Shown piece by piece: positions 1 to 5,278 of a stretch of 9,301 bases of DNA. Every line of letters starts with the position of its first letter. The stretch's first letter is position 1. The notes under the pieces were generated by a model that saw only the letters and a program-made list of their open reading frames with translations, ran no database searches and had not been told where the DNA came from. The DNA lies in the IMG/VR virus record IMGVR_UViG_2703719389_000008, one strand, 5' to 3'. Both the position numbers and the translations under genes were made by a program. This DNA is from a virus (Duplodnaviria > Heunggongvirae > Uroviricota > Caudoviricetes).

Positions 1-537
1 TTACGCATGCTTTTCGGTTCCGGCTCCACCAGTACCCGGGTATTGTGGAATACCAAAAAAAAAAATTGCGCCGGTACCATAACCACCAGCCCGAGTGTCA
101 ATCATCCATGCTGACAGGTTTTGATGAGCAAGTTGCCCGAGTGATTCGGATGTCTGGTCACGCAGCTGGTTGTCGCAGTGCCAGCACAACACCATTGCGC
201 CGGTACCATAACGGTGAATGACGGTTTCGCTGTGATGATAATCGCCGTGTGGCCACTGGCAGGATTTAATATGGCACAACAGCCAGTCAGACAATGCACC
301 AGCACCACCAGCAGCACGAATTACCCGTGCGTTACTGAAAAACGGCAGCAATGTTTTGTCTTCCACCAGCGGCTGGCGAACGGCAGGAACGACCCCGGAC
401 GGCAGATTACGCATGCTTTTCGGTTCCGGCTCCACCAGTACCCGGGTATTGTGGAATACCGGCATGGATTCACGGCCCGGCTTAACGACCACCATCCCGA
501 GTTCCGGTACCAGAACAGGTCGAAGTAATACCCGCAC
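1..537 (-). CDS. Hypothetical prophage protein (178 aa) with a Cys/His cluster resembling an HNH/NinG-like zinc-binding nuclease motif; 3' end is mosaic
   Basis: GTG start at 537 preceded by GGAGGT Shine-Dalgarno 4 nt upstream, immediately after the stop of the upstream 92-aa gene (translational coupling). Motif CHIKSC-x7-DYHH-x15-LCWHCDNQ. Last 54 nt (1..54) duplicate 407..460 in another frame, followed by an A11 run (55..65). TAA stop at 1..3. Confidence 0.45.
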   Translation of the reverse strand: MRVLLRPVLVPELGMVVVKPGRESMPVFHNTRVLVEPEPKSMRNLPSGVVPAVRQPLVEDKTLLPFFSNARVIRAAGGAGALSDWLLCHIKSCQWPHGDYHHSETVIHRYGTGAMVLCWHCDNQLRDQTSESLGQLAHQNLSAWMIDTRAGGYGTGAIFFFGIPQYPGTGGAGTEKHA

Positions 538-1879: not shown

Positions 1880-1950
1880 CGGTTGTCTCTGCTGGCGCAG
1901 CAGGTGCCAGTTGTTCAGGCTGGCGTGCGAATTGTAAACCAGAATGCCAG

Positions 1951-1978
1951 GAAAAAACAAAACCCGCCGAAGCGGGTT
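1951..1978 (-). terminator. Rho-independent terminator downstream of hok
   Basis: On the minus strand: AACCCGC-TTCG-GCGGGTT (7-bp stem, UUCG tetraloop) followed by TTGTTTTTTCC, about 70 nt after the hok stop. Confidence 0.65.
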
Positions 1979-2046
1979 AAGTGCGGGTGCATTGAGGATG
2001 CCTGACACATCAGAGGTGGCGAGGGATTTCTCCCCCGCCTGGTCTC

Positions 2047-2202
2047 TTACTCCTCAGGTTCGTAAGCTGTGAAGACAGCGACCTCCGTCTGGCCGGTTCG
2101 GATTCGTACCTCGCAGAGGTCTTTCCTCGTTACCAGTGTCGTCACTATGACGGTTAAACAGATGACGATCAGGACGATTAACATCGCCTTTTGCTGCTTC
2201 AT
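2047..2202 (-). CDS. hokD: Hok/Gef-family small membrane toxin (51 aa)
   Basis: Translation MKQQKAMLIVLIVICLTVIVTTLVTRKDLCEVRIRTGQTEVAVFTAYEPEE: Hok-family hydrophobic helix plus conserved RKxLCE and AYE motifs, close to my recollection of HokD/RelF. AAGGAG RBS 9 nt upstream of ATG 2202. The in-frame upstream ATG at 2259 is treated as leader. Confidence 0.85.
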   Translation of the reverse strand: MKQQKAMLIVLIVICLTVIVTTLVTRKDLCEVRIRTGQTEVAVFTAYEPEE

Positions 2203-2479
2203 AGCCTGCTTCTCCTTGCCTTTCGGCACGTAAGAGGCTAACCTAGATTTGCCGTTCATAGATTGAGCCTCAGATTAATGTTAAGCGTCTTGCAGGACGC
2301 GTAATGTTAACTGGGGCTTTTCTCTATCTGCCTTTGGTGTTCATGCCTGAGACAGATAGCCTCAAGCACCCGCAGCCATTCTACTTAACTCCCGTCACCT
2401 CGCCAATATGAAATCAATCAGAAAGGCGAACCATAAGAGCAATAGCAAGACAATAAGGCCCGCATGGTCGTACAAAGAC

Positions 2480-5278
2480 TCAGGCACCGTGACATTTTTT
2501 GTACTTTATTCCCGAGCCACAGGGGCATTGTTCATTCCGGCCGACCGCACCAAAAACTTCAGTTAATTTAGTCTTTGCTGCTTTATGGGCAAGCTGTACG
2601 ATGTAATTTGATTGATTTTGGATTTCTTGACGCTGTACACCTGTGAGGCCTTCGATATAGGGAGCAAGGCGCTGCATTTCGACATCAGCTGCTTTATGCT
2701 GACCCGATAGTGCTAATATGACTGCGTATTGGCTTCGAACCTGAATCAGTCGATGTACTAGACCTGCCTCATTGACAACCGGCAGGACATGTTGCTCCAT
2801 GACTTCCTTGGCACCGTCGTAATCCTTTATGGCAACAAACTCATCCGCCAGATCTTGGCCCACCCTGACCATGGATTCCGGGGCCATGGCCAGATTGTAG
2901 AACTTCATCGAATGAATACGCAGTAATGGTGACAGTTTTCCCTGCGCATCACGAATTCTGGCCAGCAACTCCAGAGCATCAGCCATATGTTTAAAGTGTT
3001 CCTGCATATTTTCGGAATGATTAATAGTTTTCCATAATGCGTCGGCGTTTTTTCCTATGACATCAGCAGGTGTGATACCAAATAAAGAATAGTACCCTTG
3101 TATAACATTACAGCTTAATGTTTCAGCATCCTTGAGTTTTTTTAATCTCCAGAGTGCAATGGCATGGTTGTAGTCAAAGATGCGTTTATGTTCTTCATCT
3201 GGGAGTTGGGGGCGGACTTCCTGTGCCAGCTTTTGAACTTCTCGTGCATCATTGCTTTCTGCCGAAAATAACATTCGTTTCATTGCATAGGCCATCTCTT
3301 CTTGATAGCCGAACTTGTGCTCCGCAAGTAAAGCTCCCATGATGTTTAACCTCTGAGCAATGTGGTCGGATATTCCGTCTTTAAGCTCAACGAAAACAAG
3401 GCCATCCAATGCCCAGAATTTATGAACAGGTCCCAATAAGTCCGATGTTGCAGCACGCTCCAAGCTTGCAAGAATGTCGACCGTCACGCCCATCTCATAA
3501 AACATTTCTTGGCCTGAGAGTTCGATCAACGTCGTGACATCATTGAGCTTAATATAAAGTTGAGTCAACAACGATAACCGTTTTGTATTGCGGGTATTAT
3601 GAAGACTTTCAACTAAAAGGTCTTTCAGCGCTAGTAGCGCTTTGTTCGATATACCCTGATCCATCAGTTCCAGATGTTGCAGTCCTAGCCCCCTGACAGC
3701 ATCATGTACCTTCAGGGTCTGGTTTCCATAAATTTCAATAGTGCCAGTAGCGCGCATTTTCCTAATTAAAGAAGCAGCACTGCTTGGTGAAATGTTCAGC
3801 GAATTGATTAGGAGCGTAGAAATCTCTTCGCGACTCAGCCCTACGTCAGAGAGACTGAACAATGCCAGCGCGCTCTGAAGTAGTGATTCAAATCCCTGAA
3901 ATACACGTGACAGAATAATTTCTTGGGCGGTTTCCGCAGTATGGGTTTGTTGCTGGAGTTCAGCACACAGAGCATCGACATTACGCTCATAATCAGAAAC
4001 GGCGATTTTTGCGGCGCTCTCTACATACAGGGGAAGACCACCAGTGTAAGCCCGTAGCTGCTCGTATCCCATAGCGGTGGCAAATCCTCCGATATCGTTT
4101 ACAACGACAGCTACCGTATCGAGATTCCATCCCTGCAGGCCCTCGCGCTGTAGCCCCGTCATGACCTCCAGTTCGCGAACGTTTTCGTGAGGCTGGCACA
4201 ACAGCACAAAACGAATATGTGTAGTTGCATTCAGAACATCCAGTAGATTTTCCGCAGGTACACGATGGGCGTTATCCAGAACCAGCACCAAGGTGGTACC
4301 CTGCTCTTTCAGGTAGGTATCAAAACTCCTAAGAGCCTCAAAACCACTGGCACCGGGGAGCAAAATCCTGCGCAAACCGTCTTGGTCACGGGCTGTAAAT
4401 CTAGCAGCCATCTCGCGCACCAGCGTACTGGCCAGAGCTGGACCGGGAAGATCACCGGTGTCGTAATAAGCACAAAGTGCAGTGGAGTGTAATGCGGCCT
4501 GTGCGGCCCAAGCTGTCTTGCCTGCACCTGAGAGTCCACAAAGGATACGGATCCGCTCACCAGATGTGAGAGAAGGTTCTTCGTTCTGTGGGCGGTACAG
4601 TGCTGGTGGTGCAGGAAAGTCCTGTAGCTGAACGATCAACTGTTCAAATAGTTCAGTAAGTTCTTCCGTGAAAAACGTATGTTGTCCATTGGTATCGCCT
4701 CCGGTGGCGGCAAGCTGAACCAATCCTGCTAACTTCCAAATCAAGGATTCTGGGGACAATAGTGAAAATTTCAGCTTTTCTGCTTCTGCGATACACCATG
4801 TGGCCGCATCAGCCAGAGTACTCCATGCGGGCGGAAGTGCCGGGTGACGTCCAGCTGTCGACTGGGGCCAGACAATAAGAACATCAGAAGGAAGCTTTTT
4901 ATCGTCAATCATCTTCTGAAGCAGCGGTCCAGGCGCCTGGTTTACAATAATCACAAAAGAAGCCACCCCTTCGCGGTTTGCCGAAGTATGCTCATTTCTG
5001 AGCTTTACAAATCGCTCCAGAGCCCCCGACACATCGTTGGGCATAATAGGTTTTGAACGGGTTTTAACCTGAATGTAGAGACGTTCCTGTTTGGATTTCA
5101 GCTCAATATCCTCATCAAGCTCGACAGTTACTGAGTCCATAGCTGCCCTCTGCGCCAAAAGTAAGCAGCCTACAGCGTAAAGATGCTGGTAAAGGAACCC
5201 CCGGTGTACCGCTTCGATACGCACCAACTGCACAGGATCCAGTACGTCCAGATTTTGTTTGTTTTCACTTCCCCACAT
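2480..5278 (-). CDS. Large multidomain protein (932 aa): PD-(D/E)xK-like nuclease motif, STAND (NB-ARC-like) P-loop NTPase, TPR-like helical repeats, C-terminal SEC-C zinc ribbon; candidate NLR-like antiviral sensor
   Basis: Uninterrupted 2.8-kb ORF with AAGGAA RBS 6 nt upstream of ATG 5278. Walker A GLSGAGKT (nt 4514..4537, verified by translation), Walker B LVLVLDN (4271..4291, verified), GGLPL (about 4028..4042), VHD (aa 524-526), N-terminal D57...Q70-V-K72 (about 5063..5122), C-terminal CPCGSGIKYKKCH (2489..2527). Confidence 0.85.
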   Translation of the reverse strand: MWGSENKQNLDVLDPVQLVRIEAVHRGFLYQHLYAVGCLLLAQRAAMDSVTVELDEDIELKSKQERLYIQVKTRSKPIMPNDVSGALERFVKLRNEHTSANREGVASFVIIVNQAPGPLLQKMIDDKKLPSDVLIVWPQSTAGRHPALPPAWSTLADAATWCIAEAEKLKFSLLSPESLIWKLAGLVQLAATGGDTNGQHTFFTEELTELFEQLIVQLQDFPAPPALYRPQNEEPSLTSGERIRILCGLSGAGKTAWAAQAALHSTALCAYYDTGDLPGPALASTLVREMAARFTARDQDGLRRILLPGASGFEALRSFDTYLKEQGTTLVLVLDNAHRVPAENLLDVLNATTHIRFVLLCQPHENVRELEVMTGLQREGLQGWNLDTVAVVVNDIGGFATAMGYEQLRAYTGGLPLYVESAAKIAVSDYERNVDALCAELQQQTHTAETAQEIILSRVFQGFESLLQSALALFSLSDVGLSREEISTLLINSLNISPSSAASLIRKMRATGTIEIYGNQTLKVHDAVRGLGLQHLELMDQGISNKALLALKDLLVESLHNTRNTKRLSLLTQLYIKLNDVTTLIELSGQEMFYEMGVTVDILASLERAATSDLLGPVHKFWALDGLVFVELKDGISDHIAQRLNIMGALLAEHKFGYQEEMAYAMKRMLFSAESNDAREVQKLAQEVRPQLPDEEHKRIFDYNHAIALWRLKKLKDAETLSCNVIQGYYSLFGITPADVIGKNADALWKTINHSENMQEHFKHMADALELLARIRDAQGKLSPLLRIHSMKFYNLAMAPESMVRVGQDLADEFVAIKDYDGAKEVMEQHVLPVVNEAGLVHRLIQVRSQYAVILALSGQHKAADVEMQRLAPYIEGLTGVQRQEIQNQSNYIVQLAHKAAKTKLTEVFGAVGRNEQCPCGSGIKYKKCHGA

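Follow-up and report, generated by a model that had tools for sequence, protein, structure and literature searches.

A very probably complete hokW-type hok/sok/mok toxin–antitoxin cassette downstream of a STAND-like gene in a lambdoid prophage setting

Locus organization

The window (the whole 9,301-nt stretch of viral DNA analyzed here) carries all of its relevant genes on the minus strand, as seen in the list of its open reading frames (ORFs) with translations. A hok toxin gene of the HokD/HokW type (2047..2202, minus strand) encodes 51 aa plus a stop codon (protein MKQQKAMLIVLIVICLTVIVTTLVTRKDLCEVRIRTGQTEVAVFTAYEPEE). The ORF matches the Pfam family HOK_GEF (PF01848) with an E-value of 4e-23 (4.3e-23) and 81 bits (cut-off 22), the toxin is 96% identical to K-12 HokD (2 residues differ), and the ORF is already named hokD in 99.8%-identical genomes. 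The hokD-type assignment made in a first-pass annotation of this DNA therefore holds, as does its placement of hok directly downstream of a STAND gene behind a 277-bp leader: the STAND-like ORF (5278..2480, minus strand, 932 aa) ends with TGA at 2482..2480, and the intergenic stretch from there to the hok ATG (2479..2203) measures 277 nt. The hok Shine-Dalgarno sequence AAGGAG lies at 2212..2217 (minus strand), within a CAAGGAG that is invariant in 41 loci. Downstream, the good terminator described earlier is present as an intrinsic terminator of the hok mRNA (1951..1978, minus strand), with the stem AACCCGC-TTCG-GCGGGTT at 1978..1961 followed by the T-run TTGTTTTTTC; the same sequence terminates K-12 hokD. 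No relBE genes were detected in the window by either the ORF list or the Pfam search, in agreement with the earlier description. The setting is that of a lambdoid prophage, in which the cassette is flanked by replication genes (for a replication initiator and a YdaS/YdaT pair) on one side and by a DUF968 gene on the other. In L001, a near-identical genome, the sequence just past the window's edge encodes RusA and the antiterminator Q.

The mok reading frame

The in-frame upstream ATG at 2259 (2259..2257) reported previously lies 57 nt 5′ of the hok ATG and opens a 70-aa ORF, which we identify as mok (2047..2259, minus strand, 70 codons, MNGKSRLASYVPKGKEKQA followed by Hok). Its geometry is that of mokW and mokC, and it matches PHROG 251 ('MokW-like host killing') with an E-value of 2.7e-31. 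The mok Shine-Dalgarno sequence GAGGCU (2266..2271, minus strand), whose GAGG is invariant in 41 loci, pairs alternately with one of two leader elements, ucb or dcb. The first-pass annotation contrasted this ATG with an overlapping, out-of-frame mok that it considered typical. Such a mok does occur in plasmid R1, where the mok ATG occupies nt 116-118 and the hok ATG nt 174-176, so that mok is in the +1 frame at an offset of 58 nt (PMC9841398), on an R1-identical plasmid locus (L006), and in K-12 mokB/hokB. It is nevertheless the in-frame 57-nt arrangement that forms the majority (97 of 105 sampled loci), and it is annotated in this way for mokC/hokC of K-12 and mokW/hokW of phage 933W. Because the 57-nt in-frame offset recurs in mokC, mokW, a close IncFII variant of the R1 locus, and those 97 loci, the ATG at 2259 represents the most frequent form of mok. 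Ribosomes starting there would produce a 70-aa protein with the whole of Hok inside it.

Two closely related IncF plasmid hok loci with identical Hok proteins (L005 444-503 and L006 236-296) differ by one nucleotide in the N-terminal region of mok, which places mok 58 nt upstream and out of frame in the R1-identical L006 and 57 nt upstream and in frame in L005. The pair fits the view that mok translation, rather than the Mok protein, is what matters. An in-frame mok for the R1 type, suggested by the in-frame ATG of the IncFII variant L005, was rejected, as the R1 sequence (L006) has one extra nucleotide.

The Sok antisense RNA and its promoter

Opposite the mok translation-initiation region, a putative antisense Sok gene is indicated by homology to sokW and sokC, a promoter, and a hairpin followed by a U-tail. 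The predicted Sok RNA (~71 nt, about 2251..2321, plus strand) comprises a 5′ single-stranded tail and a long hairpin, and then GGGGCUUUU. Its coordinates were carried over from the sokW misc_RNA of 933W through an alignment that is gap-free from the sok promoter to the Sok terminator, and its 5′ end, at mok nt +9, occupies the same position relative to mok in the annotated sokC of K-12. The segment 2251..2327 folds at −33 kcal/mol (z = −5.8). The sok promoter (2216..2244, plus strand) consists of a −35 element TTGCCT (2216..2221), a 17-nt spacer, and a −10 element TAACCT (2239..2244), and is identical to that of sokW in the 933W alignment. By our own count it matches the consensus at 8 of 12 positions. 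A sigma-70 consensus scan, which needs at least 9 of 12 positions, did not report it; this is a matter of threshold and not of absence. The aligned segment on the sok strand of the R1-type locus reads TTGCGC-17-TATCCT, which we assign as the R1 sok promoter and which matches the consensus no better than the window's. Mutation of the sokW −10 region abolishes antitoxin activity (PMC8621323).

The Rfam family RF01794 (sok) matched the window at 2371..2197 over the full model (1-157) with 110 bits and an E-value of 5.8e-25 (gathering score 59), and also matched three further loci (L003, L004, L006), those of K-12 hokC and hokB and of an R1-identical plasmid. Although this family is named 'sok antitoxin', every locus tested matched on the hok-sense strand, with the match ending at the hok ATG. 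RF01794 is a model of the hok mRNA leader and not of Sok's own strand, and strand calls taken from it are wrong for Sok. Because the match is hok-sense and ends at the hok ATG, it is evidence for a homologous leader with the sok gene on the opposite strand. The earlier statement that no sok-like promoter–terminator pair could be assigned with confidence was mistaken, given this score and the sokW alignment that places Sok at ~2251..2321 (plus strand). The atypical regulation that it implied falls as well, since sok is recognizable and an in-frame mok is annotated in mokC and mokW and present in 97 of 105 loci.

Sequence variation in the cassette is concentrated in one hypervariable block (2251-2270), which covers the spacer of the mok Shine-Dalgarno sequence, the mok start codon, and codons 2-6, and coincides with the 5′ tail of Sok. 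Among 71 unique hokD-type copies, the mean minor-allele fraction was 0.17–0.24 at 2270..2251 versus ≤0.05 for most of the remainder, and outside the block the cassette is >95% conserved. At least ten alleles of the block were seen (e.g. MNGKS, MLDTC, MSHKC, MLYTR, and MLNTC). To judge from these sequences, the block is consistent with a diversifying Sok specificity that lets co-resident prophage copies avoid cross-neutralization.

The hok mRNA and its predicted folding switch

The consensus scan identified a hok/mok mRNA promoter at 2378..2406 (minus strand), with a −35 element TTGGCG (2406..2401), a 17-nt spacer, and a −10 element TAGAAT (2383..2378). This −10 aligns with those of the hokC, hokB, and R1 loci, and together with the start region it is conserved across hokD-type loci. 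The promoter ends 6 nt 5′ of GGGTGCTTGAGG, which aligns with the experimentally defined +1 of the R1 hok mRNA. The predicted full-length mRNA (~419 nt, 1953..2371, minus strand) would start at G2371 or G2370 (position 1 of the Rfam model aligns at 2371, the R1 +1 at 2370) and end in the terminator T-run; with the former start, an mRNA position p lies at 2372 − p in the window. The minimum free energy (MFE) of the 419-nt RNA was −167.3 kcal/mol (z = −7.87 versus shuffles).

All control elements described for the family could be located on the minus strand. The translational activator element tac (GGGUGCUUGAGG, 2360..2371) forms the mRNA 5′ end (nt 1-12) and is invariant or covarying across the family. 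Its partner in the nascent, metastable hairpin lies at 2343..2353 (nt 3-13 paired with nt 19-29 in the MFE structure predicted for the 5′-terminal 50 nt). The element ucb, the anti-Shine-Dalgarno of mok (AAGCCCC, 2313..2319), has the mok Shine-Dalgarno sequence as its partner in the predicted full-length structure and tac in the truncated one, whereas dcb (AGCCUC, 2234..2239) is the partner of the mok Shine-Dalgarno sequence in the MFE fold of the truncated mRNA. Near the 3′ end, the fold-back inhibitory element fbi (CCUCAAUGCACCC, 1985..1997, nt 375-387) is paired with tac over 12 bp in the MFE fold of the full-length RNA. A stable 3′-UTR hairpin (GGCGGGGGAGAAAUCCCUCGCC, 2018..2039) is present in all MFE folds and aligns with the GGCGGGCGCAGGCCCGCC hairpin of R1 (~nt 361 of the R1 sequence), at which the truncated R1 mRNA presumably ends. 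The predicted folds make this hairpin the likely 3′ end of the processed, truncated window mRNA.

The MFE fold of the full-length RNA is closed, combining tac/fbi with ucb/SD-mok. The open state (tac/ucb with SD-mok/dcb) is the MFE fold for 3′ ends from nt 355 to 374, except nt 370, for which the RNA remains closed, and the first 50 nt form the local tac hairpin. Metastable, closed, and open states have been described for the R1 hok mRNA (PMC9841398), and the window folds appear to reproduce these three states. As controls, the same procedure recovered tac/fbi for R1 and 933W; the tac/ucb stem was not reproduced for R1 at 361 nt, and among several 933W truncations just one gave the open tac/ucb stem. 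Because the open states of these controls are inconsistent and alternative folds lie close in energy, we regard the predicted switch in the window as supportive rather than decisive.

Comparative evidence bears on the same pairings. We compiled loci that encode relatives of the window Hok, 43 from genomes and 80 from viruses, and based the covariation analysis on an alignment of 41 sequences (A3). When the 5′ end of each locus was searched for duplexes with the 3′ UTR of that locus, tac/fbi was recovered in register with compensatory changes, e.g. GGGUGCUUGAGG / CCUCAAUGCACCC in the window type, GGGCGCUUGAGA / UCUCAAGCGCCC in Photorhabdus, and GGGUGCCUGAGA / UCUCAUGGCACCC in hokB, with U-A to C-G exchanges in 9 of the 41 loci. 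For the closed structure, 85% of cells were paired versus 34–44% with slid partners, double-sided changes occurred in 75 cells versus 24 in shuffles, and the covariation score was reached by none of 500 shuffles. The open structure behaved alike (tac/ucb helix 98.9% paired; SD-mok/dcb invariant and 100% paired), and the alternative-pairing helices overall were 86–100% paired across the 41 loci. Conservation among the 71 unique copies was strongest in the regulatory elements. The window leader aligns element by element with R1, hokC, and hokB, so that an intact sok/mok arrangement is recognizable, an outcome that the first-pass annotation had itself named as contrary to its reading.

A complete hokW-type cassette

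The analysis showed where each sequence element lies and that it is present and conserved, and it yielded the predicted alternative folds; this covers the Hok ORF, mok with its Shine-Dalgarno sequence, the Sok gene, tac/fbi, the alternative pairings, and the RF01794 match. We are highly confident that ~2406..1951 (minus strand) is a self-contained, intact hok/sok/mok type I toxin–antitoxin cassette, i.e. a hokW/mokW/sokW (complete hokD-type) allele of lambdoid prophages. Its transcription, processing, Sok instability, cleavage by RNase III, and toxicity are expected by analogy: 3′ exonucleolytic processing, an unstable Sok, RNase III cleavage, and toxicity have been demonstrated in R1 (PMC9841398) and, in part, in hokW/sokW (PMC8621323).

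The cassette would work as follows. An mRNA of ~419 nt would be made from its own promoter, with the 5′ tac element held in a local hairpin while the RNA is nascent. In the full-length mRNA, tac would pair with fbi near the 3′ end and ucb would mask SD-mok, permitting neither translation nor Sok binding. Slow 3′ trimming to the hairpin at 2039..2018 would remove fbi, shift the pairing to tac/ucb and SD-mok/dcb, and render mok translatable. Because mok is in frame, its translation would also read through hok. Short-lived Sok (about 2251..2321, plus strand), supplied from its own promoter, would pair with the mok start region, causing a translation block and cleavage; if Sok transcription stopped, Hok would be made and damage the inner membrane.

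The closest annotated relatives are found in the Stx2 phages 933W and VT2-Sakai (Sp5), with 92.8% nucleotide identity to the cassette over 2391..1975. The 933W annotation gives mokW a length of 213 nt and hokW one of 156 nt; since the two end at the same stop codon, hokW is in frame and 57 nt shorter. It also lists sokW as an antisense RNA of 71 nt. As in the window, mok is in frame 57 nt upstream with 70 codons, Sok extends ~71 nt from mok nt +9, the context is a lambdoid prophage, and the sok promoter, tac, ucb, dcb, and fbi are identical; HokW and the window Hok are both 51 aa long and differ at 6 of 51 residues. The two differ in the terminator downstream of fbi, in the neighbors on both sides, and in mok codons 2-6, where the hypervariable block described above, which forms the 5′ tail or recognition region of Sok, is replaced (AACGGCAAATC against CTGAACACATG). 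Judged on this block, the window Sok and sokW probably do not cross-react. Takada et al. showed that hokW is toxic and is neutralized by sokW expressed from its own promoter, which makes hokW/sokW an experimentally shown type I system, and that hokW/sokW affects phage release (PMC8621323).

An intact sequence does not by itself imply activity, because the chromosomal hok loci of K-12 have been reported as inactive (PMC12214031, which cites Pedersen and Gerdes). The cassette could accordingly be a sequence-intact but silent relic that fails to kill because its expression is too weak or its RNA too tightly closed. Both promoters, that of sok and that of hok, do deviate from consensus, and chromosomal hokA, hokB, and hokC gave no post-segregational killing according to the introduction of a recent survey (bioRxiv 10.1101/2025.08.07.668861). 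We nonetheless consider a silent relic unlikely: there is no disabling lesion (ORFs are open, and start codons, Shine-Dalgarno sequences, and pairings are intact), the regulatory elements are the most conserved parts among the 71 unique copies, and outside the Sok-tail block the cassette is nearly identical to the toxic, sokW-neutralized hokW (PMC8621323).

Independence from the STAND gene

The cassette is widespread outside its present neighborhood. At least 865 of 5,426 complete E. coli genomes contain ≥80% of 1900..2560, and homology to other copies ends upstream at recurrent points (2456, ~2437, ~2391, and ~2384), the first of which lies 23 nt past the STAND stop. The 77 nt at 2456..2380 occur in ~1,400 genomes, and the STAND–hok junction occurs in 16 of the 5,426 E. 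coli genomes. Clustering of the 640 nt that precede the cassette sorted 66 viral loci whose flanks are complete into 35 unrelated groups, and a unit reaching ~1953 from either 2456 or 2391 is found after at least 35 unrelated upstream contexts. The neighboring STAND-like gene constitutes independent cargo; its insertion lies 85 nt 5′ of the hok +1.

A sequence scan of the stretch from the STAND stop (2480) to the hok promoter found no terminator, and read-through transcripts from the STAND gene are possible on top of the cassette's own control. One could go further and take hok for the last gene of a STAND operon, expressed by read-through only and without regulation of its own, an arrangement found in K-12, where hokD sits behind relBE with 16 nt of native leader. 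This we regard as very improbable. The promoter, tac, ucb, mok, sok, dcb, and fbi are all present and conserved, the 2456 boundary lies downstream of the STAND stop, and many unrelated genes precede the same cassette, while its junction with the STAND gene is confined to those 16 genomes. The first-pass annotation had also named cotranscription of hok from the STAND gene, without regulation of its own, as an outcome contrary to its reading; a promoter-like site of its own and at least 35 upstream contexts do not support it.

The immediate adjacency of the two genes, again with no terminator between them, and the frequency of defense genes in the slot upstream of the cassette could also suggest that hok/sok and the STAND gene form one unit, with Hok acting, for instance, as an abortive-infection effector, or with the cassette as an addiction module retaining a defense gene. 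The rarity of the pairing (16/5,426 genomes), the many other neighbors, the ~1,400 genomes that have the cassette without the STAND gene, and a survey in which hok was not enriched near known defense systems overall (bioRxiv 10.1101/2025.08.07.668861) leave this with almost no credibility.

The upstream slot as a possible cargo hotspot

In lambdoid (pro)phages, the slot upstream of hok/sok is highly variable (35 clusters among 66 loci). In other phages, 7 of 18 distinct largest ORFs upstream of the cassette matched PADLOC defense models, namely PtuB (Septu), KwaB (Kiwa), PD-Lambda-2_C, a PD-T4-6/mad6-type kinase, PDC-S39, Hp3, and PDC-S15 (loci L050, L057, L061, L066, L067, L097, and L105, about 1-1300). 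The 932-aa protein of the window (2480-5278, minus strand), named 'SEC-C metal-binding domain-containing protein' in RefSeq, combines an N-terminal region showing weak matches to Cap4/DUF4297/LmuA-like nucleases with a P-loop (GLSGAGKT) and a long, helical C-terminal part that ends in a SEC-C zinc motif. Searches against PADLOC, NCBIfam, PHROGs, and PDB sequences gave weak or partial matches (LmuA/Cap4-like, AAA, SEC-C), and no known defense family could be assigned from them. We tentatively suggest, as a possibility that we rate below even chances, that the cassette marks the downstream edge of a defense-rich cargo hotspot of lambdoid prophages and that the 932-aa protein is an uncharacterized defense system. 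In a weaker version of this idea, hok/sok may help to retain the inserts of the slot, or cooperate with them. Because hok showed no overall enrichment near known defense systems in the survey (bioRxiv 10.1101/2025.08.07.668861), the upstream pattern, if real, would be specific to this prophage subfamily. It could be used to rank uncharacterized neighbors, such as the STAND/SEC-C protein, for phage-challenge tests.

Relation to K-12 and plasmid loci

As the first-pass annotation stated, hokD follows relBE in Qin. K-12 hokD (relF), in the cryptic prophage Qin, shares its 3′ UTR, fbi, and terminator with the window in identical form, and the Qin locus and the window type occupy the same position within their lambdoid prophages, ahead of the Q-antiterminator region (ydfU and ydfT on that side in K-12; DUF968, RusA, and Q in L001). 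K-12 hokD keeps only 16 nt 5′ of its ATG, with homology beginning at window position 2216, inside the hok Shine-Dalgarno sequence; relBE stands in place of the promoter, tac, ucb, mok start, sok, and dcb, whereas the window has the complete form. Accordingly, the relBE-hokD (relBEF) arrangement is absent from the window, which has no relBE and a full leader. K-12 hokD has been described as disabled by rearrangement (PMC12214031) and as having lost its 70-codon ORF through relBE integration (PMC6379469). The K-12 relBE-hokD is the derived, truncated state, and a hok locus without relBE is the ordinary one.

Window position 2216 corresponds to the K-12 breakpoint (L002 2289) and also to the insertion point of a ~1.1-kb element in two viral contigs (L121 and L125). 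We considered whether this insert (388-1484) is relBE and rejected it, as the gene it carries is for an IS-type (integrase-core) transposase. Judging by these coinciding positions, an IS-mediated rearrangement may have produced the relBE-hokD junction of K-12.

K-12 hokC (gef)/mokC/sokC resembles the window in its in-frame mok 57 nt upstream, its RF01794 match, and its alignable leader elements, and differs in nucleotide sequence (~74% identity), in a Sok hairpin that is ~18 nt shorter, and in the loss of the fbi region to IS186. The hok/mok/sok (parB) locus of R1 has the same set of elements in the same order with the same alternative pairings (PMC9841398). It differs, besides the frame of mok, in a longer metastable region, a shorter Sok hairpin, and a plasmid-borne rather than prophage-borne location; its toxin is ~44% identical (a figure given for HokW, PMC8621323).

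The window cassette is already known as a kind, and essentially as the same allele. The well-known relBE-hokD of K-12 is truncated, and the window holds the ordinary complete cassette, which PGAP and phage annotations already call hokD or mokW/hokW/sokW. Because annotation pipelines mark just the 51-aa coding sequence, sok and mok are left unannotated in most genomes.

Additional observations

In the hok gene, the Tyr47 codon (window 2061-2064, minus strand) is UAC followed by G and reads UACG, which we take to be the TadA editing motif. Low-level A-to-I (Tyr to Cys) editing has been reported for K-12 hokC, hokD, and hokE at the position-46 cysteine site (PMC12214031).

Downstream of hok, the window carries two tandem copies, 1062 bp apart and imperfectly matched (93%), of a segment (166-834 and 1228-1896) that spans a gene for a 92-aa hypothetical protein and the 5′ part of the DUF968/HNH-like gene. 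An exact 54-nt segment occurs three times (window 1-54, 407-460, and 1469-1522), and the near-identical genome L001 contains only a single copy.
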